Shown piece after piece: positions 15,394 to 54,215 of a stretch of 64,000 nucleotides of DNA (the stretch's first letter is position 1; every line of letters begins with the position of its first letter). Made by a program: the position numbers and the translations under genes. The stretch is from Minisyncoccia bacterium (GTDB taxonomy: Bacteria > Patescibacteriota > Minisyncoccia > UBA6257 > 2-01-FULL-56-20): contig JBEKML010000002.1 in NCBI GenBank assembly GCA_050008535.1, forward strand, positions 24,732-88,731, written 5' to 3'. Under the pieces are notes generated by a model that saw nothing but the letters and a program-made list of their open reading frames with translations, did not search any database and was not told where the DNA came from.

Positions 15394-15449
15394 AAATTTG
15401 ACAGATATTGGGCGCGTGTAGTAGGAATAATTCAGTTGGAGGGGAAGGC

Positions 15450-16611: not shown

Positions 16612-16877
16612 ACGATCAGCATTCGCCGATAATCGACAAGCTCATTTATCTCGGGGGCATATTGGGTCCTCTTATGACCCTGCCGCAGCTTCTAAAAATT
16701 TGGATCGGGAAAAATGCCGTGGGCGTTTCCGCGATTTCGTGGTTCGCTTATGCCGTAGGTTCTTCCTTCTGGATCTGGTATGGATTACACCACAAACAAA
16801 AGCCGATCGTTTTTACCTACACCATTTTTCTTGTGATCGAAGTCCTTATTATCATTGGAACTTTCGTTTACGGCTAG
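16610..16877 (+). CDS. SemiSWEET / PQ-loop sugar transporter (3-TM, 89 aa)
   Basis: LGPLMTLPQLLKIW PQ motif in TM1, three hydrophobic helices, typical SemiSWEET size; start overlaps upstream stop (ATATGA). Confidence 0.65.
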
Positions 16878-16915
16878 GCGAGCAAAATGGGCTTCAAAAC
16901 ATATATCTCTTGCGC

Positions 16916-16988
16916 GGTGGACCTGAGGGGAATCGAACCCCTATCTGCCGGATGCAAACCGGCTGCTCTGCCACTAAGCTACAGGCCC
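16916..16988 (-). tRNA. tRNA-Ala (UGC) with G3:U70 identity pair
   Basis: Reverse complement GGGCCTGTAGCTTAGTGGCAGAGCAGCCGGTTTGCATCCGGC...GGGTTCGATTCCCCTCAGGTCCACC; anticodon loop TTTGCAT. Confidence 0.8.
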
Positions 16989-21370: not shown

Positions 21371-22570
21371 ATGGCAGAAAAAGAAAAATTTGACCGGTCC
21401 AAGCCGCACGTCAACGTCGGCACGATCGGGCACGTGGATCACGGAAAGACGACCTTGACCGCCGCGATCACACACATTTTGTTCAAAAAGGGTTTGGCGA
21501 AGAAAGAAGAGGGCGTTGATCAGATCGACAACGCGCCGGAAGAGAAAGCGCGCGGCATTACGATCGCGCTGCACCACTCGGAATATTCTTCCGAGAAGCG
21601 CCACTATGCGCACATTGACGCGCCGGGGCATGCGGACTACATCAAAAATATGATCACGGGTGCCGCCCAGATGGACGGTGCGATCCTCGTGGTCGCCGCG
21701 ACCGACGGCCCGATGCCGCAGACGCGGGAGCACATTCTTTTGGCATACCAGGTGGGTGTGCCGAAGATCGTTGTATTCTTGAACAAGTGCGACCAGGTGG
21801 ACGATCCGGAGCTCATTGACCTCGTGGAATCCGAAGTGCGCGAGCTTTTGAAGAAGTATCACTTTGACGGTGATAACGCCCCCGTGATCCGCGGTTCGGC
21901 GCTGAAAGCATTGAACGTGACTTCCGTCGACGATCCCGATGCAAAGCCGATACTGGACCTCGTGAAGGCGTTGGACGACTATATTCCTACGCCGGTCCGC
22001 GAAGTCGACAAGCCGTTCCTTATGCCGATCGAAGACATCTTCTCGATCGAGGGCCGCGGCACGGTCGTGACCGGCCGCGTGGAGCGTGGAAAGGTGAAAG
22101 TGAACGAAGAAGTGGAGATCGTTGGATTGAAACCGACGACAAAGACGGTCGTTACGGGCATTGAAATGTTCAACAAGCTTTTGGACGAAGGCATTGCGGG
22201 CGACAATATCGGCGCCCTGCTCCGTGGCTTGAAGAAAGAAGACGTGGAGCGCGGCCAGGTGATCGCAAAGCCCGGCACGGTGACGCCCCACTCCGAATTT
22301 TCCGCCGAGGTGTACGTGCTTTCCAAAGAGGAAGGCGGACGCCACTCGCCGTTCTTTACCGGTTACAAGCCGCAGTTCTATATCCGCACGACCGACGTGA
22401 CGGGCGAAGTGACCTTGCCCACGGGAACCGAAATGGTGATGCCTGGCGACACCGTGACGATCACCGTGAAGCTTATCTCACCGGTTGCGCTTGAGGACAA
22501 ACAGCGCTTTGCCATCCGCGAGGGCGGCAAGACCGTTGGTGCGGGTGCGGTTACGAAGATCGTAAAATAA
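21371..22570 (+). CDS. tuf: elongation factor Tu
   Basis: [44 protein letters not shown] motifs. Confidence 0.97.
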
Positions 22571-37891: not shown

Positions 37892-40800
37892 TTATCCGAG
37901 CCGCTTTGCGGCGTCGCAGATAAACTTGACCTCGCCGTCGCGCGGGGAAATATGGCCCTGCACGATCACGGGCGCGTTTTCGGCCCATACGGACGAGGTT
38001 TTCTCAAGGACGCTATTGAAGACCACGACTTCAAGCGGTTTCTGGGAAGCATCCTCGATGGTCGCAAAGATCATTGGTTGGCCGTTCTTTGTGAGGATCT
38101 TCCGCATTTTCGTCACAACGCCCGCCGCGCGCACGATAAGCCGTTCGTTCGTGACGGACATAAGCTCTGCGATCGGTCGCACGCCGGCATTCTTCAGTTT
38201 TTCCGCAAATGCCGCCAAAGGATGTTCCGAAAGATAGAACCCGATCAGCTCTTTTTCCCAGGCAAGCTTTTCGGCATTCGTCGCCGGCGGCGCGGGTTTG
38301 AGTTTCAAGGACGCCGCGGGCATGGTATCGCCAAAAAGCGATCCGCCATTCTGCATGCCTGTGCCACGCCGCGCCGCATTCGTGAAACGCAGGATGTCAT
38401 CCATGTTCGCGAGCGCTTGATTGCGTTCAATGCCAAGCGATTCAAATGCACCGGCCTTCACCAAACTTTCCAGCGATTTTTTGTTCAGGTCCTTGTGCTG
38501 GATGCGCATCAGGACGTCCTCAAAATTCTTGAACGGCCCGCGCCGTGTCCGTTCTTCAATGATGGCCTTCGTGATCTCCGTGCCGACGTTTTTCACCGCT
38601 TCAAGGCCAAACCGGATCTTTTCGCCTTCCGGCGTGAAGGCGACGAAGCTTTTGTTGATGTCGGGCGGGAGGATATCGATGCCGGATTGCTTCGCTTCTT
38701 GGATAAGGAACGAGATGCGCTCAATATCGCTTACCTCGGCGTTCAGGAGCGCCGCCATGAATTCTTCCGGATAGTGCGCTTTAAGATACGCTGTTTGGTA
38801 GCCGATCAGGGCGTAGCACGCAGCGTGCGATTTATTGAACCCGTAGCGCGCGAAGGGCGGAAAGAGCTCCCAAATGGCTTTTGCGGTGCGTTCCGGGATG
38901 CCGTTTTTGATCATGCCCTGCGTGAGCTTCACGCTTTGTTCGTCAAGCAGGGATTTTATCTTTTTCCCGATCGCTTTGCGGAGCGTATCGGCTTCGGGGA
39001 GCGTATAGCCGCCGAGGTCGCGGGCAATTTGCATCATCTGCTCCTGGTAGACGCCGATGCCATAGGTATTTTTCAAAATCGGCTCGAGCTTCGGATGGAG
39101 ATAGGTGATCTTTTCCTCGCCGTGCTTGCGCTTGATGAAAGAAGGAATAAGTTCCATGGGGCCCGGCCGGAAGAGCGCCACAAGCGCGATCAGGTCTTCA
39201 AGGACCGTAGGGCCGATGTCTTTCATGTAGCGCCGCATGCCGCTTGACTCAAACTGGAATACGCCCGTCGTGTCCGCTTTTTGAAGCAGCGCGAATGTTT
39301 TTTTGTCGTCCAATGGGATCTGGGAAATATTCACTGTTTCACCGTGGAGTTCCTTCACGAGGCGGACAGCATCTTCGATGATGGTCAGATTTTTGAGGCC
39401 CAAGAGGTCGATCTTCAGGAGGCCGAGGTCTTCCACGGCGTGCATTTCAAATTGCGTGATGATGATATCTTTTTCCTGCGGGGCGAATTGCACCGGCACA
39501 CGCTCAGTCAGGAGCTCCTTCGCGATCACGGTGCCGCAGGCGTGGACCGACGCGTGGCGTGCGACGCCCTCCAGGTGCCGCGCGGTGTCTATCAGTTTTT
39601 TTGCGTCGGGGTTCGCATCGTAGAGCGCTTTCAGTTCGGCGACTTTTTTCAGGCATTCATCGAGCCATCCTTCCTTCATGCCTTGCGTAGGATTGAAGGG
39701 GATGAGTTTCGCGATCTGGTCACAGAAAGCGTATGAATACCCCATCGCGCGGCCGGCGTCGCGGATCGCGGCGCGCGCCGCCATCGTCCCGAAGGTGATG
39801 ATGCGCGCTACGTGGTCCTCGCCGTACTTTTCGCGCGCATAGGCAAGCACTTCATCGCGCCGCGTGTCGGCAAAATCAATATCAATATCCGGCATCTGGA
39901 TACGCTCCGGGTTCAGGAACCGCTCGAAGAGCAGGCCATAGGTGAGGGGATTAATGTCCGTGATGCCGAGCACGTACGAGATCAAACTGCCCGCCGCCGA
40001 TCCTCTTCCGGGCCCCACGGCTATGCCATGCATTTTTGCCCAGGTAATAAGGTCCTGGACGATCAGAAAATAATCGGCGAAACCCGTTTTTTCGATGACG
40101 CCGAATTCATATTCCAGCCGATCGCGCACTTCTTTGGTTTGCGCCGCGGGAGGGAACCGTTCTGGCAGTCCCTCCTCCATGAGTTCGCGGAGGTAGGCGT
40201 TCGCGGTTTTCCCGTCGGGCTTCGGAAAGTCCGGCAGGAGCACCTTTCCGAGCTCCAGGTCAACATTGCAGCGTGCGGCGATCTCCGCCGTGCGCTCCAC
40301 GGCTTCGGCGCCGCCCGGGATCGCGGCGAATTTTTCCATCATTGCTTCTGGTGAGAGCACTGAAAAATCATCCTCCTTCATGGTCAGGCGGTCGTCGTCG
40401 GCAAGCCTGTTGCCGGTCTGGACGGCCAGGAGCACGTCGTGATATTCGTTGTCTTCGGAGTGGAGATAGTGGCTGTCTTGCGTTGCGACGAGCGGGATGC
40501 CGGTCGCAACGGAGAGCGCCACAAGCGGCGCTTCTATTTTTTCCGATTCGGGAACGTGCGGATGCTTTTGAATTTCCAAAAAATAATTTTCTTTGCCGAA
40601 AATGGACCGGTATTCCTCCGCGATCTTTTTTGCTTCTTCCGTCCGTCCCGCGGAGAGCGCCTGGCCGATCTCGCCGCCGAGGCATGCTGAAAGTGCGATC
40701 AATCCTTCGTGGTGCTCGCGGAGGAGATCTTTGTCCACGCGCGGGCGGTAATAAAACCCCTCAAGGTGAGCCTTGGAGACGAGCTTGATCAGATTTTTCC

Positions 40801-41089
40801 ATCCCGTTTCGTTCTCGCAGAGGAGGATAAGGTGATAGTATTTTTCGCTGGTCTCTTTTGAGAACCGATCGCGCGGCGCGACGTAGGTTTCCACGCCGAT
40901 GATCGGTCTTATGCCGTTCTTTTTCGCGGATTTATAAAACTCAACGACGCCGTAGAGCACGCCGTGATCGGTCAAGGCGACCGCATCCATGCCGAGCTCT
41001 TTTACGCGCTTTACGAGCGGATCTATCTTTGAAAGGCCGTCAAGGAGGGAATAGTGGGAATGCGTATGAAGGTGGACGAATTTAGGCAT
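37892..41089 (-). CDS. dnaE: DNA polymerase III alpha subunit
   Basis: N-terminal PHP domain (VHLHTHSHYSLLDG), polymerase core, C-terminal OB domain; 1065 aa. Confidence 0.95.
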   Translation of the reverse strand: MPKFVHLHTHSHYSLLDGLSKIDPLVKRVKELGMDAVALTDHGVLYGVVEFYKSAKKNGIRPIIGVETYVAPRDRFSKETSEKYYHLILLCENETGWKNLIKLVSKAHLEGFYYRPRVDKDLLREHHEGLIALSACLGGEIGQALSAGRTEEAKKIAEEYRSIFGKENYFLEIQKHPHVPESEKIEAPLVALSVATGIPLVATQDSHYLHSEDNEYHDVLLAVQTGNRLADDDRLTMKEDDFSVLSPEAMMEKFAAIPGGAEAVERTAEIAARCNVDLELGKVLLPDFPKPDGKTANAYLRELMEEGLPERFPPAAQTKEVRDRLEYEFGVIEKTGFADYFLIVQDLITWAKMHGIAVGPGRGSAAGSLISYVLGITDINPLTYGLLFERFLNPERIQMPDIDIDFADTRRDEVLAYAREKYGEDHVARIITFGTMAARAAIRDAGRAMGYSYAFCDQIAKLIPFNPTQGMKEGWLDECLKKVAELKALYDANPDAKKLIDTARHLEGVARHASVHACGTVIAKELLTERVPVQFAPQEKDIIITQFEMHAVEDLGLLKIDLLGLKNLTIIEDAVRLVKELHGETVNISQIPLDDKKTFALLQKADTTGVFQFESSGMRRYMKDIGPTVLEDLIALVALFRPGPMELIPSFIKRKHGEEKITYLHPKLEPILKNTYGIGVYQEQMMQIARDLGGYTLPEADTLRKAIGKKIKSLLDEQSVKLTQGMIKNGIPERTAKAIWELFPPFARYGFNKSHAACYALIGYQTAYLKAHYPEEFMAALLNAEVSDIERISFLIQEAKQSGIDILPPDINKSFVAFTPEGEKIRFGLEAVKNVGTEITKAIIEERTRRGPFKNFEDVLMRIQHKDLNKKSLESLVKAGAFESLGIERNQALANMDDILRFTNAARRGTGMQNGGSLFGDTMPAASLKLKPAPPATNAEKLAWEKELIGFYLSEHPLAAFAEKLKNAGVRPIAELMSVTNERLIVRAAGVVTKMRKILTKNGQPMIFATIEDASQKPLEVVVFNSVLEKTSSVWAENAPVIVQGHISPRDGEVKFICDAAKRLG

Positions 41090-41256
41090 AGGTGTTCTTT
41101 GTGTTGCCCCCGCAAGCGAGGATGCAGAACATTGAATTGCTCTTAAATGATACTAAAAAATTCATGAAAAAGACAGGGGCTATGTTGCTGCACGGCCCTA
41201 CCGTCATGTTTACAGAATGTTTATCGTCATATAATATAGGGGAGCCGCAAGGGACC

Positions 41257-41328
41257 GCCGGAGTAGCTCAATGGCAGAGCAGCGCTTTTGTAAAGCGAAG
41301 GTTGGAGGTTCGACTCCTCTCTCCGGCT
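41257..41328 (+). tRNA. tRNA-Thr (UGU)
   Basis: GCCGGAGTAGCTCAATGGCAGAGCAGCGCTTTTGTAAAGCGAAGGTTGGAGGTTCGACTCCTCTCTCCGGCT; anticodon loop TTTGTAA; TTTACA-N17-TAATAT promoter upstream. Confidence 0.8.
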
Positions 41329-41337
41329 CAATAAAAA

Positions 41338-41739
41338 TCAGAACCGGTTGCTATCAAGCAGTTCTTTGAAGTAGGCATCCAAGTTTTCCAGTTTTTTGAT
41401 TTCTTCTATTATGAACCAGCCGTATTCTGTGTGGTCGTCGTTCAGTTTTGGCTGTCCGTCAATATTTCCCGAATACGTTAATCTTACAACATGTCTGCCG
41501 GGGACTCGCAAAATGTCTTGGGCGGCCACGAGCTTTGGCGTTTCGGTCAGGTCCAGGTTTACTTCCTCTTTGATCTCGCGTTTTAGATTGAGAAGAAGCG
41601 GCGTACCGGGGATGATCCTGCCGCCAACGATGTCCCATTTTGCTCCGACCTCCGGATATTTTTCCGACGAGCGCCGTACTAAAAGATATTTTCCATCTTT
41701 ATTTTTGAGAAATGCTTTGACGCCGACTTGTAGTTCCAT
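41338..41739 (-). CDS. NUDIX hydrolase
   Basis: MELQVGVKAFL...GGRIIPG...REIKEEVNL Nudix-box-like; start chosen at Met 41739 so as not to overlap tRNA-Thr(GGU). Confidence 0.65.
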   Translation of the reverse strand: MELQVGVKAFLKNKDGKYLLVRRSSEKYPEVGAKWDIVGGRIIPGTPLLLNLKREIKEEVNLDLTETPKLVAAQDILRVPGRHVVRLTYSGNIDGQPKLNDDHTEYGWFIIEEIKKLENLDAYFKELLDSNRF

Positions 41740-41792
41740 GGAACCATTGTACCACTGGACTTTTTGGTTGAAAAACTTACTATATCTATAGT

Positions 41793-41865
41793 GCCGATGT
41801 AGCTCAGCTGGTAGAGCAACTCCATGGTAAGGAGTAGGTCGCCGGTTCAAATCCGGCCATCGGCT
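41793..41865 (+). tRNA. tRNA-Thr (GGU)
   Basis: GCCGATGTAGCTCAGCTGGTAGAGCAACTCCATGGTAAGGAGTAGGTCGCCGGTTCAAATCCGGCCATCGGCT; anticodon loop ATGGTAA. Confidence 0.85.
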
Positions 41866-41920
41866 CAAGAAGGGGAAAGGGCTTGATTAATGCCGTTCGG
41901 CGGGATATACTGTCTTCCAT

Positions 41921-42100
41921 ATGGCAAAAGTTAAATGGGCCGACAAATTGATCACTCTCCGCTGTTCCGTCTGCAAGCGGCGGAATTATTATACGACGAA
42001 GAACAAGAAAACCGTTGAGCGGAAAATAGAATTCAAGAAGTTCTGCAAGTGGTGCCGGAAGGCTACGTTACACAAGGAAGCGCGCATCACCGGGAAATAG
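41921..42100 (+). CDS. rpmG: 50S ribosomal protein L33 (zinc-ribbon)
   Basis: MAKVKWADKLITLRCSVCKRRNYYTTKNKKTVERKIEFKKFCKWCRKATLHKEARITGK; not in ORF track (59 aa); TTGATT-N17-TATACT promoter upstream. Confidence 0.85.
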   Translation: MAKVKWADKLITLRCSVCKRRNYYTTKNKKTVERKIEFKKFCKWCRKATLHKEARITGK

Positions 42101-42115
42101 TACAATATTCGTGAG

Positions 42116-42186
42116 GGGGGCATCGTTCAGTGGCAGGACAGCGGTCTCCAAAACCGCCAACCTGGGTTCGATTCCTAGTGCCCCCG
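42116..42186 (+). tRNA. tRNA-Trp (CCA)
   Basis: GGGGGCATCGTTCAGTGGCAGGACAGCGGTCTCCAAAACCGCCAACCTGGGTTCGATTCCTAGTGCCCCCG; anticodon loop CTCCAAA. Confidence 0.85.
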
Positions 42187-42201
42187 CAGTATACTTAGGT
42201 T

Positions 42202-42894
42202 ATGGGCATAGAAAACTTAGGGAATCTCGGCCATTGGATAAGAGATTATTTGCACGCTATTCATAAACAGAGCCTGGCTTTTATTTACAGAAAGCCGCCC
42301 CGGCATTATCTTGAACACATTATTGATGGCAAAAAGCCGGTTATTCTTATCCCGGGAATATTTGAAAAATGGCACTTTTTGAAAGCCGTCGCCGATCCAT
42401 TGTCTTTGCTGGGACATCCAATTTACGTGTTAGAGCGCATGGGGTACAACACGCGGGAAATTCCCCATTCGGCCAAGCTCATCCGGGAGCTTATTGAAGA
42501 AAGGAATCTGAGGCACGTTGTCATTGTTGCCCACAGCAAAGGCGGCCTCATCGGAAAATATGTTTTGGCGTTTTACAATCAAGACAAAAGAGTCGAGAAA
42601 GTTATTGCCATCGCAACGCCGTTCAAGGGGAGCGCTATGGCAACATTCATTCCCGGAAAAGCGGCGGAAGAACTTTCTCCGCGCAGTAAAATTATCGAAA
42701 CGCTATCCGAAAGGAAGGAGGTGAACCACAAGATCACCTCTGTTTTTGGTGTCTTTGATAATCATGTTTGGCCGGAATCCAGCTGCTCTCTCGAGGGAGC
42801 GAAAAATATTCAAGTCGAAGTACGCGGCCACCACAAAATCCTTTTTGACAAAAAAGTGAGAGAGATTGTGGTGTCCGAAATAGAAACCGCTTAG
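42202..42894 (+). CDS. alpha/beta-hydrolase, lipase/esterase-like (AHSKGG nucleophile elbow)
   Basis: GxSxG-type motif VAHSKGGLIG; visibly A+T-richer than flanks. Confidence 0.7.
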   Translation: MGIENLGNLGHWIRDYLHAIHKQSLAFIYRKPPRHYLEHIIDGKKPVILIPGIFEKWHFLKAVADPLSLLGHPIYVLERMGYNTREIPHSAKLIRELIEERNLRHVVIVAHSKGGLIGKYVLAFYNQDKRVEKVIAIATPFKGSAMATFIPGKAAEELSPRSKIIETLSERKEVNHKITSVFGVFDNHVWPESSCSLEGAKNIQVEVRGHHKILFDKKVREIVVSEIETA

Positions 42895-42897
42895 GGG

Positions 42898-45800
42898 CTA
42901 CGGGATCTCTATCCGATTGGATCCTGATACATTGACGCTCGTCGTGACATTCACGCTATTTAATGGTCCCGCGCCTCCTCCCTGGCACGAAAGATTGTAC
43001 GTCGCGGCTTGCGTCGGGGAGACCGACAAGGTTCCTCCTGCCGGGTTCACTGAAGTGCCGTTTATGGCGCATGAAACAGTGTTTGTGCAGCTCCACGAGA
43101 GTACTGATGATTGCGGCGGGACGATCAGCGTGGGGCTTGCGGAGAAGGTGCAACTCGGCGCAATAACGGTGATCAATACGGAGTCCGAGGCGCCGCAGGC
43201 ATCCGTCGCTGTTAGTTGGTATAAACCTGGCTGGGAATATGAGACGGACCACGAATCACCGGCACCCATAGACCATGATGGGTCCGTAGGCCCCGTCGAG
43301 GTCCATGAAAAGTCCCCACAGCCTCCTGAAGCGGTAGCGGTCACGATGCTGCCCACGGGCACGGTGGTGGCAGGAGTTATGGAAATAGAAGGAGGAGAGG
43401 GTGCGTTTACCGTTATTGGCGTGGCTCCTGATTTTGTCGGGTCCTGAACGCTCGTCGCTTTTATAACGGCCTGCATGGATCCCGCAGCCAGCGCGACCCT
43501 GGCGGGCAGCCACAGTTCTTTCGCGGCGCTTATGCTTGCGGGTGCGGTATAGACGCCGCTTGCGTTAATTGATCCGCCGCCACTCGCGACCGACCAGGTT
43601 ACCGCAGAACTGTAACTGCCAGTGCCGCTAACAGTCGCTGAGCACATCGAGGTTCCTTCGAGCGGGACCGAAGTCGGGCTACAGGAGACGGAGACGGAGC
43701 CTATTGTGGACGCGGGCGGCGCCGAAGAGACGGAAATATTGCACGTTTTCGAGCTCGCGCCGCTTGTCACCGTCGCTGAATAATCGCCGGATGTGTTGTA
43801 GGTCGTCTGGAAGAAAGATCCATTCCAGGTGGAGGGGCTCGCCCCGCTTGAGGTCCAGCTGTAGGTGCCGTTCCCGCCGCCGGCACTGAAGGAAACCATG
43901 TCGCCCGTCGCCGAGGATTGATCCGCAGGGCTGCAGGTGAGTGCCACCGGAGTAGGTGTGACCGAAAGGGTTGCACTGTCCGAGGCGCTCCCGCCGGGGC
44001 CGGTGCAGGTCAGGGTGTAGGTATGCGTGCCGACCGTTGAAGGAGAGATCACTCCTTGCTGGTTTGAACCCACCGATTGCGCACCCGACCAATCGCTCTC
44101 TGCGGGGGAGGCGGAGGCGGTACAAGCGGTTGCGTTCGTGGTGGTCCAGAAAAGCGAGGCCGATTGCCCCACAGTGATGGGAGAAGGAGAGACCGAAAGG
44201 GAAACGGCGGGGGTCGTGCCGGTGCTCACGGTAAAGTCAACGTCGTTGGACTGGACGTTCGGCGAAGAAAATTGCGCCCACTCCGTCCAGGAACCAATGG
44301 TTCGTCCCGAAGCCTAGAGCGGAGCAGTTGGTCGGTCCATTATGAGTGGCGCAGAACGAAAAGGGCGTATTGGGGATATTTGAAGTAAGGTTGAGCGTCC
44401 ATGCCTGTCCGACTGTGAAATTACCGCTTGTGCCGCCGTTGATAGTGAGCGATGCGGTCGCGGCCGGGCTTACTACAAGGGTTGCGTTACTCGAGGCGCT
44501 CCCGCCGGGGCCGGTGCAGGTCAGGGTGTAGGTGTAGCTGCCCGTGGCGGCGGGGGAGACCGAGGTGGAGCCGCTCGTTGATCGCGAACCGGACCAGGCA
44601 TTCGACGCGGTGCAGGCGGTTGTGTTCGCGCTTGACCAGGTGAGCGTTGCCGATTGCCCGGCGTTGATGGAGGAAGGAGAGACCGAAAGGGAAACGGCGG
44701 GTTGTCGTTTCGCCCTTAAAAGCGATGCTGGCAACGTATGTCCCTGCAGTACTGGGAGGAGTTGTAGATATCGTCACATTACTCGATAGCCCCTGGTTAA
44801 TTGGCGAAATATTGGATAAAGAAGTGGACAAAGAAGATTCCTGAATCCATCCGCTCGAGGGCCCGCTTATATAGGTTACGTTCGCGCTTAAGCCGCCCAA
44901 AGTTGATCCTTGTGTGCCGCTATTCGTGATCGTTACCTGCCCGCTTGTATCGGATGGACTCAAAGAAAGTGATTCGGGGCTTACCGCCATTTTTGCTAAG
45001 GGATCCCACGAAATAATAAAATTGGCGGTGAGTTGGGAAGGGGAAAGTGTTAAGGTGTCCGCCGGGGAAATACTTACCGCATTTGCGGTTGGGATCGAGG
45101 AAAGAACATTCTTCAAAAGAGCGAACGAACTTGGCGTGTGGGTATCGTGCAAAGCAACATCCCGGTTTTCTATTGAGTGCAATGTATACTGGGTTTGATC
45201 AGATGGCGTAGCGGCGTTTGCTGGCAGGGTATACTGGTCATTATTTGCCCTCAGGCCAGTGTAAGTTCCTTGATAAGCATTGTCGCAGGAACCACCGTGC
45301 CCGGAACAGGGATCGTTGCCGGTGGGAAAAGCTGTGAAGTGCCAACTTGCAGGTACCGACAGATCGGTTTTGGAGTTCTTCGAAGAAACGGTGATCGTTC
45401 CATTTGTGCCGCCGACCGGGTCACATGTGCCGGGCGTTGAACCGGGGGTGTACGTTATGCCGCCCGTGAGGCCCGTAGCTGCCGTGTAGCAATAGGTTGC
45501 ACTCTGGGCATCTACCCAAGCTGACCCGCCGCCCCATTTCCCCGAACCGTTTGGCTTACATGCATTTATTACCGTAACAACGAGCTGATCGCCGGGATTT
45601 ACAACTGCGCTCCCGCTGCCGCCATTCCCACTGCCCGCCCCTCCGCAGCCGGAACCGGCAACATCGTCCGGGCCGCACGTGCAACCATTATAAGAATAAT
45701 AAAAGGTCCCGATTTGTGCGGATCCATTATCATCAAACGCAGCAACGCCAACATCTGCGGTGGTATTTGGATAAATGCGAATATTTACATAACCGCCTGG

Positions 45801-46085
45801 ATCGAGCCATGTCCCGGCGGGGATGCCTACCTGCGTGGCCGTTTCGGTCCATCCCGCAGGCAATGAATCTCCCCCCGCAGAATGGCACGTTTCCCCGCCC
45901 TTGCTGTATCCTCCCCAGTAGAAAAGTGAACAAGTGGAATTCCACATATTGGCGTGACTTACGAATCCGCACATCGTAGCCCCGTCGGAGCATGTCGCCA
46001 ATGCCGCGAAGGAAATTGACGGCGAAACAAGCGCAAGGGTGAATGACGCGACTGTCAAAATAAAAATGGTTTTCTGTGGTTTCAT
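42898..46085 (-). pseudogene. giant secreted Ig-like-repeat surface protein, fragmented into three consecutive ORFs (46085-44487, 44734-44237, 44229-42898)
   Basis: Signal peptide at 46085 end; frame change between ...AFKGETTT and QPAVSLSVSPSS (~44715) and stop/restart at 44237/44229, both at boundaries of a repeated TTPAVSLSVSPS...YTLTCTGPGGSAS module; Big_2-like segment in last ORF. Confidence 0.5.
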
Positions 46086-46088
46086 TGT

Positions 46089-46910
46089 TTATGAATTGGG
46101 TACTTTTGAACTCACAATAATGTTTGTCTGCCCTTTCGCTTCTCCTTGGATCTGAACGTTTATCTGCTCCTTCGTTGAACTATTTTCCGCGAAGATGGTT
46201 GCAAGCGCGGAGGTGTTCGTCTTGGTCATGATCTGCCATGACGCGCCGGAGAAGAGACCAAGGTATTGGTTATAAAGTGTGCTTACCGATTCGCTGCTTT
46301 GGTATATCGCAGCGGTCGTGTGAACACCACTTGCGGGATCGGGATTGTCGCTTGAACTTAAAATTTTCGCCGAAGGATCAACGACAAGCTTTCTGGGGAA
46401 TCCTGTTACGAGCGTACCTTGCTGAACGGTCAGATGAGCGAATTGAGGCGTCGCGGTTCCCGCAATCCCCGTCCCGTAACTTACGGTGACCTGCGACCCC
46501 GACCCCTGGACGACGATTGCAACGCTCACCACGGAGGAAGCATTCTCCGCGTAGAGGCCCCGGGAGTTTTTATATTCCGTGACTTTGTTTGTGATCGGCC
46601 AGCCATTCGCTGGAAGGTATGCAAGATATTCATTATAGATGTCCGCGACAGAACTGGAGGAATTGAACGAAACGGTATACTGGTTCGTGCTCGTGCTGTA
46701 GTTTATACTATAACTTTGCGAAATGCGCGCGAGGGAATCAAGAACGAGCTCTTTCGGAAATCCGGGCGTGAGTTGGCCGCTCGGCGCAAAAGCGGGCGTG
46801 CCCATTGGCACCGGCCGCGTTGACGAGAAATACCACCAAAAAGCAAGAAGTATGACGATTACGACAGCGATCGCAATAAAGACAATTCGTGCTCGCTTGT
46901 CCATTTCCAT
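46089..46910 (-). CDS. membrane-anchored protein with internally duplicated domain
   Basis: N-terminal TM helix; two homologous halves (FPKELVLD...YNEYLAYL...GWPI / FPRKLVVD...YNQYLGLF...SWQI); 4 nt upstream of adhesin start. Confidence 0.6.
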   Translation of the reverse strand: MEMDKRARIVFIAIAVVIVILLAFWWYFSSTRPVPMGTPAFAPSGQLTPGFPKELVLDSLARISQSYSINYSTSTNQYTVSFNSSSSVADIYNEYLAYLPANGWPITNKVTEYKNSRGLYAENASSVVSVAIVVQGSGSQVTVSYGTGIAGTATPQFAHLTVQQGTLVTGFPRKLVVDPSAKILSSSDNPDPASGVHTTAAIYQSSESVSTLYNQYLGLFSGASWQIMTKTNTSALATIFAENSSTKEQINVQIQGEAKGQTNIIVSSKVPNS

Positions 46911-47024
46911 TAGACTTATTATACCAAATCCTCCAAAAAAGAAATAGTGTGGATAGAAAACGGCCCCAGCAGCGCACAGTGCGCACCGCTGGGGCCGAAG
47001 TTGGTTTGGTTCCCGCCAGGGAAC

Positions 47025-48980
47025 CTAGAAGAGCGTAACGGTCAGCGACACCGGTTGTGAGGTCGTGCCGCCGGGACCCTTGCATTTCAGGGTCCCTTTG
47101 AGGGTCATTGGAGGCGTCCAGAGAGGTACCGCAATCGTCACGGAGTTGTTGACGGGTTGCTTGCCCTCGATGTCGCCCGACGCAACGCAGGAATCTGCAT
47201 CGGTCGTTTTCCACGTGATGGTCGCTGTCTCTCCTGCGCGAACTTTCTCGGGGGAGACGGAAAGGGTGATCGTCGGCTTTGGCGAAGCGGATTCTGATCC
47301 GACATCCGCGGGAGCGTCATCAGTAGGGTTCCTCGCGATGAAGATCATATTCCCATCAGAGCCGGGACGGGGACGACGGGAAACGTTTGCCATCTGCCCG
47401 CTACTGCCGCCACCGCTCATCAGAAGCGCTTGGCACTCGTTCGCCGCACACGCATACATCTGTGTGCCATCGGGCGAGACACCAAACCCAACTGCGAGCA
47501 GGTTGCTCGTTACTGACAGGTTCGTGGCCGTACCGGTCTTCGCGTCCACCGAGATGAACCGCGAGAGGCCGGCGACGGGGTCGGCGATAGCAACAAGAAT
47601 ACTGCCGTGCGTTTCGTCCGCTGCGATCCGGATAGGGGACAGTCCATCCCCCAGGATCGCACGGAGATCCACACGCTTGGTCTCCTTCATCGTCGCGATG
47701 TCAAAGATGACCAGTTGCTTGTCGGGCTGGGCAAGGAACGCCCCAGTGCCGACCGCGGGTCCCGAATTGAAGGCGGCGAGTTGCCATCCGCCAGCAGTCG
47801 CGCTGGCATCGGCTCCTACCTGGGTGATCCCGGGGAGGAACAGAAATCCCTTGGTGCTCATGTCGGGAACCGAGATTCGCCAAAGGGTTGAATCCCCGCG
47901 CGAGTAGACGATAGCATCCAGCTCTTTGCCGAGTTGCGCCATCGTGAGCGACCACGGATAGCTGCCGACCGACGTTGAGATCATCGATGGCGTGTCTTGG
48001 GCTAGATCAAAACTCGATACTAGCCCATCTTTGGGTTGAGTGACGCAGGCATAACCACTTCTGGCCGCTACGGCCATGGTCTGCTTACCATTGTATGCCG
48101 TGTGCACTCCGCTGGCGTTCGTCCAATCAACCACCATACTGCCAGCGCCCGCGCGTACGATTGACTTCGTTGTTTCGTCGTATGCTATGCCGCTGCCCCC
48201 TTCCGTCAAAAACCCATTCGGGGTCACGGTGGTTCCCGGGCCGACCAGGAATTTCCAGATATGCTGTTGCTTGTCGTCGGTGAGTGTTCCCTGTTGCAGT
48301 TGGAATAGCTTTCCTGACGAATCAAGCGCGAGTGTGTTCTGGTTCCCCTGGTAGCCGAAACTCATCGAGTTCGAGGTGCCTGCCGGACACTTCACTGACC
48401 AGCGGTAGAACTGCGGCGGCGACCAGCTAAAACTGAGGGTCACCCAGATTTTGTTGGGGGCCGTTCCTTCCAAGAGGGTCAGATCCACCCATGGATCTGC
48501 CAGGTGCAGCACGCACCCTGCGGCGAACCCAGACCCGTTGATCTGGATATTGCCGATGACCGATCCCCCGTCATCAAGATAGACCACATTCGGCGTGATC
48601 GAACTGATTACTGGGACCGGTGGCGTCACCGTGAGTGTCATTGAGGCGCTCTTTGTCGGGTCTTGCGTGGATGTCGCTGTTACCACGACCGTCATTGACG
48701 TCGTCGTGGACGGGGGGGTGAACAGCCCGCTTCCGGTGATCGTGCCCGCGCTCGCGGACCATGTCACCGCGGAACTGTAATTCCCCGTACCCGTTACTGA
48801 CGCCGAACATTGGGATGTCGCACCGCTTACGATCGTCGCCGGTGAGCACGTGATGCCCACCGATGTGATGGTAATGGGCGTGGGGGTGACTCCGCCGCTG
48901 GAACTTCCACCACCACTGGGGCAACCCGTCCCTGCCACGATGGCAAGGACGAGGATAGTCCAAAGAACACTCGTTTTCAT
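47025..48980 (-). CDS. lipoprotein-like surface protein: Big_2 Ig-like domain + beta-propeller-like region + C-terminal Ig-like domain
   Basis: Signal + LAIVAGTGC lipobox-like Cys; ITCSPATIVSGATSQCSASVTGTGNYSSAVTWSAS Big_2 motif; C-terminal domain resembles adhesin repeat. Confidence 0.65.
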   Translation of the reverse strand: MKTSVLWTILVLAIVAGTGCPSGGGSSSGGVTPTPITITSVGITCSPATIVSGATSQCSASVTGTGNYSSAVTWSASAGTITGSGLFTPPSTTTSMTVVVTATSTQDPTKSASMTLTVTPPVPVISSITPNVVYLDDGGSVIGNIQINGSGFAAGCVLHLADPWVDLTLLEGTAPNKIWVTLSFSWSPPQFYRWSVKCPAGTSNSMSFGYQGNQNTLALDSSGKLFQLQQGTLTDDKQQHIWKFLVGPGTTVTPNGFLTEGGSGIAYDETTKSIVRAGAGSMVVDWTNASGVHTAYNGKQTMAVAARSGYACVTQPKDGLVSSFDLAQDTPSMISTSVGSYPWSLTMAQLGKELDAIVYSRGDSTLWRISVPDMSTKGFLFLPGITQVGADASATAGGWQLAAFNSGPAVGTGAFLAQPDKQLVIFDIATMKETKRVDLRAILGDGLSPIRIAADETHGSILVAIADPVAGLSRFISVDAKTGTATNLSVTSNLLAVGFGVSPDGTQMYACAANECQALLMSGGGSSGQMANVSRRPRPGSDGNMIFIARNPTDDAPADVGSESASPKPTITLSVSPEKVRAGETATITWKTTDADSCVASGDIEGKQPVNNSVTIAVPLWTPPMTLKGTLKCKGPGGTTSQPVSLTVTLF

Positions 48981-49179
48981 TATTTGTCCGTCCTTTCAAG
49001 TGGCAGGGGCTTGATGTCCCTGCTTCTAACCACAATTATACTACATACAACCCTATCTTGTCAAATCGGCAAAAATGTGTGAATATGTGGGCAAAACTTG
49101 AACTCGCAAACGCACGCGCTTCTTTTCAAACCCCGTGGAATCTGCTAGATTTTCATTGGAGCGCAGGCGTTACGGGCGC

Positions 49180-49251
49180 GCCGGAGTAGCTCAATGGCAG
49201 AGCAATGCTTTCGTAAAGCAGAGGTTGGAGGTTCGACTCCTCTCTCCGGCT
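49180..49251 (+). tRNA. tRNA-Thr (CGU)
   Basis: Identical to tRNA-Thr(UGU) at 41257 except anticodon arm (...GAGCAATGCTTTCGTAAAGCAGAGG...); anticodon loop TTCGTAA. Confidence 0.8.
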
Positions 49252-49259
49252 CCACTATA

Positions 49260-49622
49260 ATGAAGATAATGCGAGGAAGAGATGTTTCGAGCGGTAGTCT
49301 TTTTGGCGAATCGGGGCCGGGAGAAGGAGGCCCTTTGGCGCCAGGGTACCACTTCAACGAGGGGGGAGAAATAATTGATGATAAGGGGGATGTCTATAAC
49401 GGTGACTATACGCTGAAGCGCAAGGCGCTCGATCCGTATTTCGAAAAGGCGCTTAACTCGGTTCGCGAGAATCTTCAGAACGAAGGAAGAAATGAGCCGG
49501 AAGAATTTGTGAGACAACTTGCCCGCATAGAAGCGGCGCAAGCGAGGGCGGAAGATAAGAGAAAAGAAAAGGAACAGAAACGCGCGGAAAGGGCAAGAGC
49601 GCGGGAAGCGAAGCAGAATTAA
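49260..49622 (+). CDS. hypothetical protein with Lys/Glu/Arg-rich C-terminal tail
   Basis: 120-aa ORF starting 9 nt after tRNA; ORF-track start 49194 lies inside the tRNA. Confidence 0.45.
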   Translation: MKIMRGRDVSSGSLFGESGPGEGGPLAPGYHFNEGGEIIDDKGDVYNGDYTLKRKALDPYFEKALNSVRENLQNEGRNEPEEFVRQLARIEAAQARAEDKRKEKEQKRAERARAREAKQN

Positions 49623-49630
49623 AGATAACC

Positions 49631-50702
49631 ATGAAAGAAATCGAGAACCTTGAAGCATTGCAGTCCGAAGCCCGCCGGCTGGGCGGGCGTCTTTGACCTT
49701 GCGGCAAAAGAAAAAAGAATAGGGGAGTTGGAGGCGGAGATGGCGTCCACAGTGTTTTGGAAAAATCGCGAGGCGGCGGATGAAAAGATCCGCGAACTCG
49801 GCATTCTCAATGACGTCGTAAAACGCTACCGTGAAATTGAGAGCGGCATCGCCGCGCTTGAACGCGGACGCACGGCGGGCGCGGGCGCCGACTCCGGTGC
49901 CGCCGGCAATCTTGACGAAGGAACATTCTACGAGCTTAAAAAGAAATTCAGGGACTTTGAACTGAAGCAGCTTTTCACGGGACGGTACGATGCGCAAGCG
50001 GCGGTGCTTTCTATCTATCCGGGCGCGGGCGGCGAGGATGCGGAAGATTGGGCGCGGATGCTCGGCCTCATGTATGAAAATTACGCGAAGCGGCGCGGAT
50101 GGAAAATACGGGTGGTCGACGACAATATCCGTTCGCGCACGATCGAAATAAAAGGGGAGCATGCCTATGGGTATCTAAAAAAAGAATCCGGCGTGCACCG
50201 GCTCGTGCGCATCTCCCCGTTCTCGCCGAAAAAACTGCGGCATACTTCATTCGCGCTTATTGAAGTAGTTCCCGACCTGCCGCCGCTTGAAGAGTCAAAA
50301 TTGCAGATCCCCGAAAAGGACCTGAAAGTTGAATTTTATCGTTCGGGCGGTCCCGGCGGACAGAACGTGAACAAGGTGGAAACGGCCGTGCGCGTGGTGC
50401 ATGTGCCGACCGGACTCGCCGTGAGCTCGCAGGCGCAGCGGTCACAGGCCCAGAACCGCGAATATGCGCTGAAACTTCTGAAAGCGAAACTTTTCCACCT
50501 CATGGAAAAAGAAAAAGTGAGCGAGATCAGCGCCCTGCGTGTGAAGGTGAAGCCGGAATGGGGGAACCAGATCCGTTCCTACGTATTAAACCCCTATCAA
50601 TTGGTAAAAGACCACCGCACCGAAGTAGAAACAGCGAAGGTAGAAGGTGTTTTGGCGGGCGATCTGGACCTTTTCATTGAAGCGGAACTGGAAATGTTAT
50701 AG
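49631..50702 (+). CDS. prfB: peptide chain release factor 2 with programmed +1 frameshift (frame 0: 49631-49693, shift at CTT TGA C 49691-49697, frame +1 to 50702)
   Basis: Frame-0 MKEIENLEALQSEARRLGGRL then in-frame TGA at 49694; +1 frame continues DLAAKEKRIGEL...SGGPGGQNVNKVETAVR (GGQ motif); GGGCGGG upstream of CTTTGAC. Confidence 0.9.
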
Positions 50703-52332: not shown

Positions 52333-52875
52333 CTAAAACCGCATATCGTACCAATCCAATCCGTAGATTTCTTGGATGAGGATTCTCTCGCCCTTGGCCC
52401 ACGTCCGATTTTTTTCTAGGCCGAGCAGTGTCACGCCCTCTTTTACGTGTTCTTCGCTTTTGCCCTCTATTTCCAAATACGGTGGCATTTTGGGGTAGAG
52501 GTCTATTTCAAAGACCCAATCTTTCAGCGCGAACGACGTTCGTTCTTTGTCCTGGTGCGCATATTTTTCAAGTCCGATCATCAAAAAAAGATCGGCTAGT
52601 TTCTCCGGCTCTGCGACCGTAAAATTTATTTCCTTATGCGTCCGTGCGGTGCCCAGGATGTCCGACTTTCCCTTCCACGTGACCTCATGTTTTCCGGCGC
52701 TATTGGAACGGATGCGCAAAAACCATGGATCTTTTCCCTCCTTCACTCCTATCGTCCGATACCAATCCACCCGCAAAACGGTTTCCTGTGTTTTTTGGGC
52801 CCCAAGCGCCGCGAGTTTTTCCTTTACCGCATCGGCGTCGATGTCCAGAACTGTCGTTTCGGTTTCGTGTGCCAT
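52333..52875 (-). CDS. CYTH-domain protein (triphosphate tunnel metalloenzyme family), paralog 1, degenerate N-terminal ExExK (ETETT)
   Basis: LRIRSNSAGK, YLEIEGKSEE motifs shared with paralogs 2 and 3. Confidence 0.65.
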   Translation of the reverse strand: MAHETETTVLDIDADAVKEKLAALGAQKTQETVLRVDWYRTIGVKEGKDPWFLRIRSNSAGKHEVTWKGKSDILGTARTHKEINFTVAEPEKLADLFLMIGLEKYAHQDKERTSFALKDWVFEIDLYPKMPPYLEIEGKSEEHVKEGVTLLGLEKNRTWAKGERILIQEIYGLDWYDMRF

Positions 52876-52953
52876 TTCGTCTTGTGTTGCTATTTTAACA
52901 AGTTTATACTTGAAGTAAAATCTTTACTTTTGCGGTCGGTATATAATAAATCC

Positions 52954-53469
52954 ATGGAGGAAATTGAATTGACGTATCTTGCGCGGGCGCTGCCTCCGGG
53001 CATTCTAAGTGCTCCGCGCAAAGAAATGCTTGATATTTATATTCCCGCGTCGGCGGAGCATCCTGATCTGCGGATACGGAGGGTCGGCGAAAAGTGCGAG
53101 ATCACCAAAAAGCGGCCGATCAAAGATGGGGATGCCTCCCATCAAATGGAAAACACCATTCCGCTCACGAAAGAAGAATACGAAGAGATGAGCCAGCTGA
53201 AAGGGAAGCGGACCAGAAAAACCCGCTACTATTACGAAGAAGGCGGAGCGCGGTATGAAGTTGATATATTTCGGGACGATCTTGCAGGGCTTGTGCTTGT
53301 TGATATTGAATTTGATTCACTGGAAAAGAAAAAGAGTTTTCATCCGCCAGCATGGTGCCTTGCGGAGGTGACGCAGGAGAAATTCCTTGCGGGCGGGATG
53401 GTTTGCGGGAAGCGGTATGCGGACATTGAGCCGCAGCTCGCCAAGTTCAACTATAAAAAGATCCTGTGA
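52954..53469 (+). CDS. CYTH-domain protein, paralog 2 (EIELT in place of ExExK)
   Basis: LRIRRVGEK, VDIEFDSLEKK; TATAAT ends 6 nt before ATG (leaderless-type). Confidence 0.65.
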   Translation: MEEIELTYLARALPPGILSAPRKEMLDIYIPASAEHPDLRIRRVGEKCEITKKRPIKDGDASHQMENTIPLTKEEYEEMSQLKGKRTRKTRYYYEEGGARYEVDIFRDDLAGLVLVDIEFDSLEKKKSFHPPAWCLAEVTQEKFLAGGMVCGKRYADIEPQLAKFNYKKIL

Positions 53470-53624
53470 AAAATTACGCAAAGGTAGGCAACCGCGCCGG
53501 ACGGCCCGCGTACCGCACCGCCTCGCAATTTCGATACAAGAAACAGGCAACCGTTTTAAAAACCAAAGCGGCAGAACGTAAACGGTTCAAACCCGGCCGC
53601 GGATGAATTTGATATACTCAACGG

Positions 53625-54215
53625 ATGAATATTGAATACGAAGCGAAGTTCTTAGACGTTGACAAGGATGAAATCAGGGGGCGTCTAAGGAATGCGGGAG
53701 CTGACCTCGTGCGGCCTGAATACCTGCAAAAAAGAATCCCGTTTCATCTTCCTAAAAACAAACGCTCAAAAGACGCCTGGCTTCGCGTTCGAGACGAGGG
53801 TGACAAAATAACCCTAAGCCTGAAAGTAGTAGACGGCGAAAAGATAGAAAACCAAAAGGAAATTTGCCTTAATGTCAGCAGTTTTGACGACGCCGTAAAA
53901 CTACTTGAAGCTATCGGTTGTGAACCGAAATCGTATCAGGAAACAAAGCGAGAGCTGTGGAAACTTGACGGAGTTGATATTACTATCGACGAATGGCCTT
54001 TTCTTGAGCCGTTCGTTGAAGTTGAAGGCTCGTCGGAGGAAGTAGTGAAAAGAGTTTCAGAAAAGATCGGATTCAATTATACTGACGCTCTCTTCTGCGC
54101 TGTCGGCAAGCTGTATCAAATGAAATACCATATTCATCCGGACGAAATAAACACTGCGTCAAAAATAGTTTTTGATATGGAAAATCCGTTTAGACGGCCT
54201 TCGGCCGGGTTCTAA
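53625..54215 (+). CDS. CYTH-domain protein, paralog 3 (canonical EYEAKFL ExExK motif)
   Basis: IEYEAKFLDVD, LRVRDEGDK, FVEVEGSSEE; TATACT ends 6 nt before ATG. Confidence 0.7.
   Translation: MNIEYEAKFLDVDKDEIRGRLRNAGADLVRPEYLQKRIPFHLPKNKRSKDAWLRVRDEGDKITLSLKVVDGEKIENQKEICLNVSSFDDAVKLLEAIGCEPKSYQETKRELWKLDGVDITIDEWPFLEPFVEVEGSSEEVVKRVSEKIGFNYTDALFCAVGKLYQMKYHIHPDEINTASKIVFDMENPFRRPSAGF

Follow-up and report, generated by a model that had tools for sequence, protein, structure and literature searches.

The interval downstream of tRNA-Trp in a Minisyncoccia genome as a probable flexible, species-variable slot for surface-protein genes

The stretch of DNA analysed here, 64,000 nucleotides (nt) of contig JBEKML010000002.1 from a Minisyncoccia bacterium of the Patescibacteriota (assembly GCA_050008535.1), carries a hydrolase gene and three genes for predicted surface proteins, termed S651, S273 and S1100, between a tRNA-Trp and a tRNA-Thr gene, and the question that this locus raises is whether these genes arrived as an island inserted at a tRNA. 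An earlier reading of the sequence (the original prediction) had proposed exactly this, namely an accessory island bracketed by two near-identical tRNA-Thr genes. We consider it probable that the interval after tRNA-Trp represents a flexible, species-variable slot for surface-protein genes at a synteny breakpoint, rather than a fresh tRNA-bracketed island. The segment holds accessory genes of atypical codon usage, and its content differs between relatives with the same flanks, so that this part of the prediction stands, while neither the bracketing by tRNA genes nor a recent insertion was upheld. All coordinates refer to the whole 64-kb stretch, which is called the window; numbers with L denote compared loci or contigs, and numbers with P compared proteins. 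The comparison drew on DnaE-centred loci from six relatives and on 80 rpmG-centred loci from GTDB species representatives, with 10-kb flanks, and marker genes and tRNAs were mapped on all of them. DnaE homologues with 74-90% identity to that of the window carry the labels Minisyncoccia, Paceibacterota or Patescibacteria, and the contigs that encode exact window proteins were obtained from peat metagenomes.

Change of slot content between species with conserved flanks

The variable interval comprises the 6,992 nt (42188-49179) between tRNA-Trp(CCA) (42116..42187, plus strand; ARAGORN and Rfam), its left border, and tRNA-Thr(CGU) (plus strand; 49180..49254 according to ARAGORN, 49180-49251 according to Rfam), which forms its right border and is linked to prfB. 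Two relatives, L012 and L019, share the full frame of this slot, that is tRNA-Trp...tRNA-Thr(CGU)-prfB-ftsE(-ftsX-atp) with tRNA-Thr(CGU) directly upstream of prfB, and identities to the window amount to 85% for DnaE, 75% for prfB and 91% for ftsE in L012, and to 88% for rpmG, 78% for prfB and 90% for ftsE in L019. The window slot, of 7.0 kb, holds the hydrolase and the surface genes; that of L012, of 3.3 kb, encodes a 365-amino acid (aa) open reading frame (ORF), an AttH-domain protein and a SIMPL-domain protein; and that of L019, of 6.6 kb, encodes an fn3/PG_binding protein, a PLD-like protein, a methyltransferase and a peptidase A4. No homology among the cargoes of these three loci was detected by tblastn. 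From species to species, the content of the slot changes and its flanks are retained.

The closest relative retrieved with sequence over the site, L018 (DnaE 87-91%, NUDIX 86% and rpmG 90% identical), carries homologues of the surface genes after tRNA-Trp in the order and orientation seen in the window, with identities of 48-54% for S1100, 79% for S273 (aligned first repeat, tblastn) and 29% for S651, and has a different gene in place of the hydrolase. As the surface genes are syntenic in L018 at 29-79% identity, they are old and not a recent arrival, and the sequence comparison indicates that the set was in place before L018 split off and has diverged at a far higher rate than core genes. Locus L020, considered as a further carrier of the operon, was ruled out, as it offers no more than a Big_2-like fragment and a 38% match to a single S273 repeat, and a metagenome scan with S273 retrieved two short contigs of the same population and no new synteny.

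The tRNA cluster, gene order and the search for an integrated element

The canonical bacterial cluster at this position is tRNA-Thr/Tyr/(Gly)/Thr-tuf-rpmG-tRNA-Trp-secE-nusG-rplKAJL, and the lack of secE-nusG-rplKA after rpmG-tRNA-Trp had been taken as a sign of insertion. The lack itself was confirmed, as tblastn with E. coli probes that do detect the genes of control loci found none of NusG, L11 and L1 encoded in the window. The same NusG, L11 and L1 probes placed secE-nusG-rplKA directly behind tRNA-Trp in 0 of 78 Patescibacteria loci, and the absence is therefore a lineage trait and not a trace of insertion; in the synteny comparison that had been proposed as a check, relatives likewise lack secE-nusG here, the arrangement that had been named as ancestral. 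The canonical rpmG-nusG-rplK-rplA order was seen only in the non-Patescibacteria loci L085 (Omnitrophota) and L092 (Coriobacteriaceae), and in L073 and L080 nusG/rplK lie 6.5-7.5 kb downstream, past prfB-ftsEX. In L088, genes of about 130, 180, 135 and 224 aa, together with cluster c15, were considered as secE-nusG-rplK-rplA and ruled out, their Pfam assignments being MliC, unknowns and PCMT. The window thus retains tRNA-Thr, tRNA-Thr, rpmG and tRNA-Trp in canonical order, but differs from the canonical cluster in the location of tuf, which resides in the str operon (21371-22570) and not before rpmG, and in having no secE-nusG-rplKA after tRNA-Trp, with rplJL or prfB-ftsEX at variable distance. 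The str/S10/spc ribosomal operons and ATP synthase genes are also present in the window.

What follows tRNA-Trp varies widely among the relatives: rplJ-rplL-tRNA-Val-mraZ lies 1.1-8.8 kb past it in many loci, prfB-ftsE-ftsX 1.4-7.7 kb past it in others, and tRNA-Glu/Lys/Arg/Ala blocks stand behind it in still others, while in the distant loci L073, L080, L087 and L088 rpmG-Trp is followed by one to five genes and then by prfB-ftsEX. A tRNA-Glu(UUC)...tRNA-Lys(CUU)-tRNA-Arg(UCG)...tRNA-Ala(UGC) block is located in the window at 6871-16988, about 25-35 kb upstream of rpmG, and directly downstream of tRNA-Trp in several relatives (L017, L027, L030-L032); this shift in position points to large rearrangements with breakpoints at tRNA genes.

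The supposed bracket consists of tRNA-Thr(UGU) (plus strand; 41257..41329 by ARAGORN, 41257-41328 by Rfam) and tRNA-Thr(CGU). The two genes were described as identical outside the anticodon arm, and this is correct, as their five in-gene differences all fall within the anticodon stem-loop. The pair is the sole long direct repeat (88 nt, 88% identity) in a repeat scan of 41000-49700, besides the intragenic immunoglobulin-like (Ig) repeats, and its identity spans the entire tRNA outside the anticodon arm and ends at the gene ends. In L012 the UGU and CGU isoacceptors likewise share one backbone, which argues for paralogy and not for duplication of an att site; whole-tRNA identity ending at the gene ends, together with this parallel, rules the pair out as att repeats. 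On their sequences the two near-identical genes are to be regarded as isoacceptor paralogues with no role in slot turnover, and the claim that they bracket an island was not borne out.

Between the members of this pair the genes that had been described were all found: a NUDIX hydrolase (41338..41745, minus strand; PF00293, E 5e-14) in a small variable slot between two tRNA-Thr genes, tRNA-Thr(GGU) (41793..41866, plus strand; ARAGORN and Rfam), rpmG for ribosomal protein L33 (41921..42100, plus strand; PF00471, E 3e-19) and tRNA-Trp. An Rfam scan of 40.5-50.5 kb returned nothing beyond the four tRNAs. The left neighbour of tRNA-Thr(UGU) is dnaE (37892-41089, minus strand; 1,065 aa), and in most relatives tRNA-Thr(UGU) similarly lies beside DnaE and ahead of rpmG. 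The order tRNA-Thr(UGU)-[tRNA-Tyr]-tRNA-Thr(GGU)-rpmG-tRNA-Trp is kept, with small variable slots, across about 78 Patescibacteria loci, and rpmG is 59-95% identical in 80 related loci. The slot between the tRNA-Thr genes holds in relatives another NUDIX gene (in either orientation), a methyltransferase, a LAGLIDADG-like ORF or nothing; the NUDIX protein of the window has atypical codon usage and is 86% identical in L018 and 72-73% identical in L007/L017. From these sequence comparisons the block that starts with tRNA-Thr(UGU) and runs to rpmG-tRNA-Trp emerges as a conserved core cluster, not as part of an island.

The short spacers of tRNA-Thr, rpmG and tRNA-Trp are in a number of relatives filled by ORFs of about 200-230 aa, sometimes two per locus, with an N-terminal helix-turn-helix and a G-x-Y-W-G/C-E-G-type motif; they resemble LAGLIDADG homing endonucleases, lack a significant Pfam match, do not occur in the window and were seen in L007, L012, L014-L016, L018, L019, L022, L025, L037, L042, L048, L067, L068 and L088. 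The DnaE ORF of L018 (3690-8270; 1,526 aa) has insertions of about 154 and 433 aa relative to the 1,065-aa DnaE of the window, which are probably inteins.

Integrase remnants and att-like repeats of the tRNA-Trp 3′ end had been suggested as further traces of insertion, and none was found in the window. The hydrolase start codon lies 14 nt past the tRNA-Trp 3′ end, that is directly adjacent to the tRNA. A second copy of this 3′ end was detected nowhere in the window with a 27-nt probe (<=3 mismatches) or with fuzzy probes of 16-45 nt, no ORF of the window matches an integrase or recombinase Pfam family, and tblastn of the relatives' serine recombinases against the window returned nothing below E 0.1 except one 19-aa match of the L041 recombinase ORF (E 0.005), which is merely an antisense reading of tRNA-Trp. 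Intergenic space within the segment totals about 330 nt, leaving almost no room for a hidden remnant. In three relatives large serine recombinases of 561-631 aa abut or overlap the tRNA-Trp 3′ end (L010, 6541-8253; L029, 9963-11648; L041, 10233-12128), the 3′ end of each recombinase gene being located at the 3′ end of the tRNA, and in L010 the recombinase is followed by small ORFs and a type I restriction-modification (R-M) system (HsdR/S/M). No second tRNA-Trp 3′ copy was present within the 8-10 kb flanks of these three loci. The recombinases at tRNA-Trp indicate that the site can receive integrative elements.

At the other end of the slot, a 119-aa ORF (49263..49622, plus strand) with no Pfam hit and a Lys/Arg/Glu-rich C-terminus lies between tRNA-Thr(CGU) and prfB, and a counterpart with 31-42% identity occupies the same place in L019. 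The prfB gene for RF2 (49631..50702, plus strand; PCRF and RF-1 domains) starts the conserved prfB-ftsE-ftsX-atp flank and contains a classical programmed +1 frameshift, as the ORF from the ATG at 49631 stops at CTT TGA C (49691-49697) and the +1 frame past this point is a 350-aa RF2 ORF. Between ftsX and atpB, which follow each other directly in L012, the window has two CYTH-domain genes (52333-52875, minus strand; 53625-54215, plus strand) and a further ORF (52333-54215 in total), and this gap represents another small, low-GC variable slot.

Surface proteins, their variants and the hydrolase

Minus-strand ORFs of 443, 165/532, 273 and 651 aa pack 42898-48980 almost without gaps. S651 (47025..48980, minus strand), a probable lipoprotein of 651 aa, has a signal peptide ending in AGTGC, which is lipobox-like, and combines a Big_2-like Ig domain, an IPT-like domain, a beta-propeller and a PKD-like two-Cys module. 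Its AlphaFold2 model (30 homologues; mean predicted local distance difference test, pLDDT, of 84) predicts two N-terminal beta-sandwiches, a propeller of about 300 aa, a disordered linker and a C-terminal beta-sandwich. The top Foldseek match in the PDB was 1L0Q (E 7e-13, TM 0.55 relative to the target), an archaeal S-layer protein of Methanosarcina mazei with a tandem YVTN beta-propeller and PKD, which S651 resembles in its predicted propeller followed by a PKD-like beta-sandwich, and the fifth-ranked match was the Leptospira antigen Lp49 (3BWS). S651 differs from these proteins in that sequence identity is only 11-17% and Pfam sees no YVTN repeat in it, and in the N-terminal addition of a lipoprotein signal, a Big_2-like Ig domain and an IPT-like domain; the predicted structure suggests an S-layer- or adhesin-like design.

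S273 (46089..46910, minus strand) is a 273-aa protein with an N-terminal membrane anchor and two repeats of about 110 aa. It has no Pfam hit. A 151-aa ORF in the corresponding position of L018 matches its first repeat with 79% identity (tblastn segment), or with 71% when 147 codons are aligned. S1100 (42898..46085, minus strand), a secreted multi-Ig protein, is intact with 1,100 aa in L001, where a signal peptide and a Cys-rich N-terminal region of about 300 aa without matches are followed by a string of Ig-like domains, with weak PKD and BiPBP_C matches in the protein. Relative to L001, two stretches are missing from the window, one of 47 nt at ~44301 and one of 68 nt at ~44701, so that the frame is broken and S1100 is split into ORFs at 44487-46085, 44237-44734 and 42898-44229; the 47 and/or 68 nt are carried by L001, L002 (in part), L096 and L097. 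The frame break of the window is either a real pseudogene variant or a collapse at repeats.

These three proteins had been described as sharing Big_2 and a novel repeated module. The module, of about 80 aa with an invariant Trp and two Cys, is indeed repeated, being present three times in S1100 (aa 486-563, 665-749 and 1016-1089 in L001) and once at the C-terminus of S651 (aa 569-650), where it folds as a beta-sandwich in the model; S273 contains neither this module nor Big_2. Its copies have only sub-threshold Pfam matches (PKD, E 1.6e-3; K319L-like_PKD, E 2.7e-4) and no sequence match in the PDB, and the above-threshold PKD match at aa 97-155 of the 443-aa ORF S443 (25.9 versus 23.5 bits) is a separate PKD domain and not a module copy. 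A search with a profile of the four window modules (E<=1e-3) yielded 19,286 representative proteins, in which the module occurs up to 47 times per protein, and in four multi-copy examples no Pfam family clears its curated cut-off, bar a marginal DUF5979 match (26.8 versus 25 bits). The module is thus a widespread PKD-like Ig repeat that is uncurated by Pfam and does not constitute new biology. Big_2 itself received no Pfam match even at E<=5 in S651, S273, S1100 or the L018 homologues; other homologues do, though, contain domains annotated PF02368 or PF26182 with 50-66% identity to the N-terminal Ig domain of S651, which is therefore Big_2-like, below threshold, so that of the Big_2 claim for all three proteins only this resemblance in S651 was retained.

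A perfect sigma-70 consensus promoter (TTGACA-18-TATAAT, 12/12 matches; 49035..49064, minus strand) lies upstream of S651, and an intrinsic-terminator-like hairpin with a 17-bp stem, 13 GC pairs and a T tract (46961..46997, minus strand) lies just past its stop codon. As promoter and terminator bracket it, S651 looks monocistronic, and the genes for S273 and S1100 are 3 nt apart. In place of the single minus-strand operon that had been suggested, the three secreted or surface-type genes, with S1100 represented here by broken ORFs, are probably organized, to judge from these signals, in two transcription units, S651 and S273 + S1100.

Contigs from other samples provided a view of variation within the population. 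Six of them match the window at 99.96-100% from 32.2 kb to 44301, where four of the six end. L001 equals the window over 44702-47961 and then shows 31 single nucleotide polymorphisms in 120 nt followed by divergence, inside the N-terminal half of S651, which is polymorphic between strains from 47962 on; L096 starts exactly at 47961, and P0122 is a full-length S651 variant with 75% identity. L097, about 95% identical overall, is a mosaic, with 0 differences over S1100 codons 1-300 (900 nt) and, in the flanking blocks, synonymous divergence (dS) of 0.19 for S273 and of 0.13-0.36 for S1100 codons 300-600. The ratio of nonsynonymous to synonymous divergence (dN/dS) relative to L097 is 0.08-0.37 (S273: 0.08). 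The strain variants are recombination mosaics, and this pattern in their sequences is the one left by recombination between homologous but diverged alleles that are under purifying selection. Contigs of several samples (L003-L006 and L096) break at ~44301 or 47961, which points to repeat-driven assembly fragility or real polymorphism. The join over 48.1-49.2 kb, from the S651 5′ end to tRNA-Thr(CGU), is contained in no other contig retrieved.

Two proteins from beyond the species, P0124 and P0126, resemble S651 most closely among its full-length relatives, and both do so far more than the syntenic L018 gene with its 29% identity. P0124, 40% identical over 92% of its length and of the same four-domain architecture, is encoded on a 64% GC contig from a SPRUCE peat metagenome-assembled genome binned as Bryobacteraceae, and P0126, 38% identical, on a contig of 61% GC that also encodes RT-Cas1, an acyl-CoA dehydrogenase and a tyrosine integrase. 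Secreted phosphoesterases encoded on contigs of up to 3.65 Mb contain domains with 50-66% identity to the N-terminal Ig domain of S651. Another homologue, P0129, lies on a 47% GC contig that looks like candidate phyla radiation (CPR) DNA and carries a diversity-generating retroelement (DGR) reverse transcriptase and pilins. In L095, a 214-kb contig of 47% GC, the DGR components RVT_1 and bAvd (568-1955) are located about 6 kb from an S651-family gene, and the window has no such element.

The hydrolase gene (42202..42894, plus strand) had been singled out as a low-GC, lipase-like gene, and this description was confirmed, its GC content being 0.456 versus 0.545 for the window and its product an alpha/beta-hydrolase of the lipase/esterase type (Pfam Abhydrolase_1, PGAP1, LCAT and lipase-like matches) without an obvious signal peptide. 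Among 957 homologues the best 120 are 53-77% identical, apart from one near-self match of 99%, and those with names, among the matches listed, are all Patescibacteria (Minisyncoccia, Sungiibacteriota, Niyogibacteria, Moranbacteria, Liptonbacteria and others). The gene stands in unrelated neighbourhoods in two relatives, and in none of the other loci compared does it lie within 10 kb of rpmG. Its low GC was ruled out as evidence for foreign origin, the family being common in Patescibacteria.

The GC and codon analysis that had been proposed gave a divided result, as tetranucleotide and codon usage deviate in the interval while its mean GC is not low (0.554 for 42188-49179 versus 0.545 for the window), low GC being confined to the hydrolase and the NUDIX gene. 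The departure of tetranucleotide usage from the mean of the window is greatest over 41-49 kb, with z up to 3.9, and the hydrolase, S443, S532, S273, S651 and NUDIX genes use atypical synonymous codons relative to 22 housekeeping genes, with log-likelihood differences (dLL) of -0.17 to -0.35 for cargo and NUDIX as compared to +0.05 to -0.15 for the reference set, and a z of -7 for the hydrolase. The Ser-, Thr- and Gly-rich composition is a confounder of this test, and the codon usage shows accessory status and not necessarily foreign origin. Elsewhere in the window a MTS/PrmA-like S-adenosylmethionine-dependent methyltransferase gene (10289-11149) has a GC content of 0.37 versus 0.545 and the most deviant codons of the window (z -15). 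Recent horizontal acquisition is more plausible for this gene than for anything in the flagged region.

Origin of the variable interval and its meaning

The rival explanations differ in what they ask of this locus. A classical tRNA-targeted island, in which an element integrated at tRNA-Trp or at the tRNA-Thr repeats, displaced secE-nusG-rplKA and later lost its integrase, would agree with a cargo that begins 14 nt past tRNA-Trp, is atypical in composition and is missing from most relatives, with the serine recombinases at the same tRNA-Trp in L010 (together with the type I R-M system), L029 and L041, and with S651-family genes that adjoin a tyrosine integrase in the non-CPR contig L100. It would not account for a window free of integrase, remnant or tRNA-Trp 3′ repeat with only ~330 nt of intergenic space, for a tRNA-Thr pair whose paralogues are just as alike in L012, for secE-nusG missing in all 78 loci, for surface genes that are held in common with L018 at 29-79% identity and are hence old, or for a hydrolase that is a typical CPR gene, and a recent integration is largely refuted by these results, so that we regard an origin of this kind as improbable. 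The resemblance to classical integrase-borne tRNA islands (Juhas et al. 2009, PMC2704930) and to additive flexible genomic islands (fGIs) with tRNA-Lys 3′ repeats (PMC10872708) is one of position directly 3′ of a tRNA, atypical tetranucleotide and codon usage and patchy distribution, extended by the recombinase-bearing elements of relatives at the same tRNA-Trp; the window differs from both in having no integrase, tRNA 3′ repeats or mobility genes, and the enzymes of the relatives differ from those of classical islands in being large serine recombinases and not tyrosine integrases. The opposite view, a purely vertical gene order at a rearrangement breakpoint, with fast-evolving resident genes, a relocated hydrolase and no horizontal input, deserves more credit and is still unlikely in our judgement: L018 carries the surface genes at the corresponding position, the hydrolase family occurs throughout the CPR, the varied conserved blocks that abut tRNA-Trp in relatives indicate repeated rearrangement, mobility genes are lacking and dN/dS is below 0.4, but L012 and L019 keep both flanks with unrelated cargo, which needs gain and loss and not rearrangement alone, S651 is 38-40% identical to proteins on non-CPR-looking contigs of 61-64% GC as compared to 29% in L018, its N-terminal Ig domain has its 50-66% identical counterparts on contigs of megabase size, and the strain contigs are recombination mosaics. 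An assembly artefact, by which contigs were mis-joined at Ig-module repeats or at the near-identical tRNA-Thr genes, is highly improbable; the 47 + 68 nt that the window is without are found in all other contigs, at repeat-rich positions, and many contigs break at ~44301 and 47961, but the segment from 32.2 to 44.3 kb is reproduced at 99.96-100% by independent assemblies of several samples (ENA ERZ27250059; JGI 3300038451, 3300018005 and 3300018018), L001 and L096 continue the join through 44.7-48.0 kb, L018 shows the same gene order after tRNA-Trp and L012 and L019 the same right flank, leaving only two small indels suspect.

The reading that we favour, that of a flexible surface-protein slot at a synteny breakpoint, has its closest known counterpart in replacement fGIs of aquatic bacteria and archaea with tRNA flanks, which encode surface structures and are exemplified by Methylophilaceae fGI-1 with tRNA-Ser and tRNA-Arg (PMC10872708); the Haloquadratum cell-wall island is a further replacement-type flexible island (PMC4535781). 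The likeness consists of a fixed position between conserved, tRNA-containing flanks, non-homologous gene sets in related genomes, a cargo mainly of predicted cell-envelope components, the lack of integrase and tRNA-end repeats, and mosaic alleles. The differences are that variation here lies between species (81-90% DnaE) and in allelic mosaics and not in strain-level cassette swaps, that the cargo consists of surface proteins rather than glycosyltransferase and polysaccharide genes, and that the slot frame is broken by rearrangement in several relatives. By analogy, turnover might proceed mainly through homologous recombination and gene replacement across the conserved flanks, with a possible contribution from chromosomal rearrangement and with serine-recombinase elements perhaps integrating occasionally at tRNA-Trp. 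S651, for which the consensus promoter predicts high abundance, would be expressed as a strongly promoted, terminator-bounded unit and S273 + S1100 as a second one, the hydrolase may be a relocated CPR-type gene, and S651, S273 and S1100 may together form an exposed cell surface that serves in attachment to a host or substrate or in phage evasion.

Several observations weigh against this reading. The genomes compared are different species (DnaE 81-90%), so that plain rearrangement together with gene loss and gain could mimic the pattern, and in L018, the closest species, the slot is bounded on the right by an ABC ATPase in place of tRNA-Thr(CGU)-prfB, so that even there its frame is not constant. 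The hydrolase family, being common in Patescibacteria, cannot be called foreign to this phylum; deviations in codon usage as large as those of the cargo, or larger, are seen in other accessory ORFs of the window, and atypical codons may reflect low expression or unusual amino acid composition and not foreign origin. No positive or diversifying selection was apparent at gene or block level (dN/dS 0.08-0.37), the two indels that break the S1100 frame could be assembly artefacts, and the surface location and function of S651, S273 and S1100 are deduced from sequence and predicted structure only.

A more far-reaching proposal is that the tRNA-Trp slot of Paceibacteria serves as a clade-wide exchange point, with surface genes and Ig modules crossing phylum boundaries, which the sequence similarities of S651 might suggest and which we consider improbable in this general form. 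Cross-phylum exchange of S651 or of its modules is in itself plausible and unproven, binning and the missing taxon labels limiting what can be concluded, and, if true, such an exchange of genes could point to the host or partner with which this uncultured episymbiont is in physical contact.

Replacement-type flexible islands have already been described, and current understanding is not overturned by any result obtained here. For genome annotation the locus carries a warning, in that near-identical isoacceptor tRNAs and a 'missing' secE-nusG can mimic the bracket of an island though both are lineage-wide traits, and the two-Cys Ig module, with more than 19,000 protein clusters, deserves curation in Pfam. 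For the biology of these organisms the locus provides a defined surface-protein set in an uncultured member of the CPR, composed of an S-layer-like lipoprotein and a giant multi-Ig protein, and proteins of the S651 and S1100 type are obvious candidates for host attachment or for phage receptors in episymbiotic Patescibacteria.

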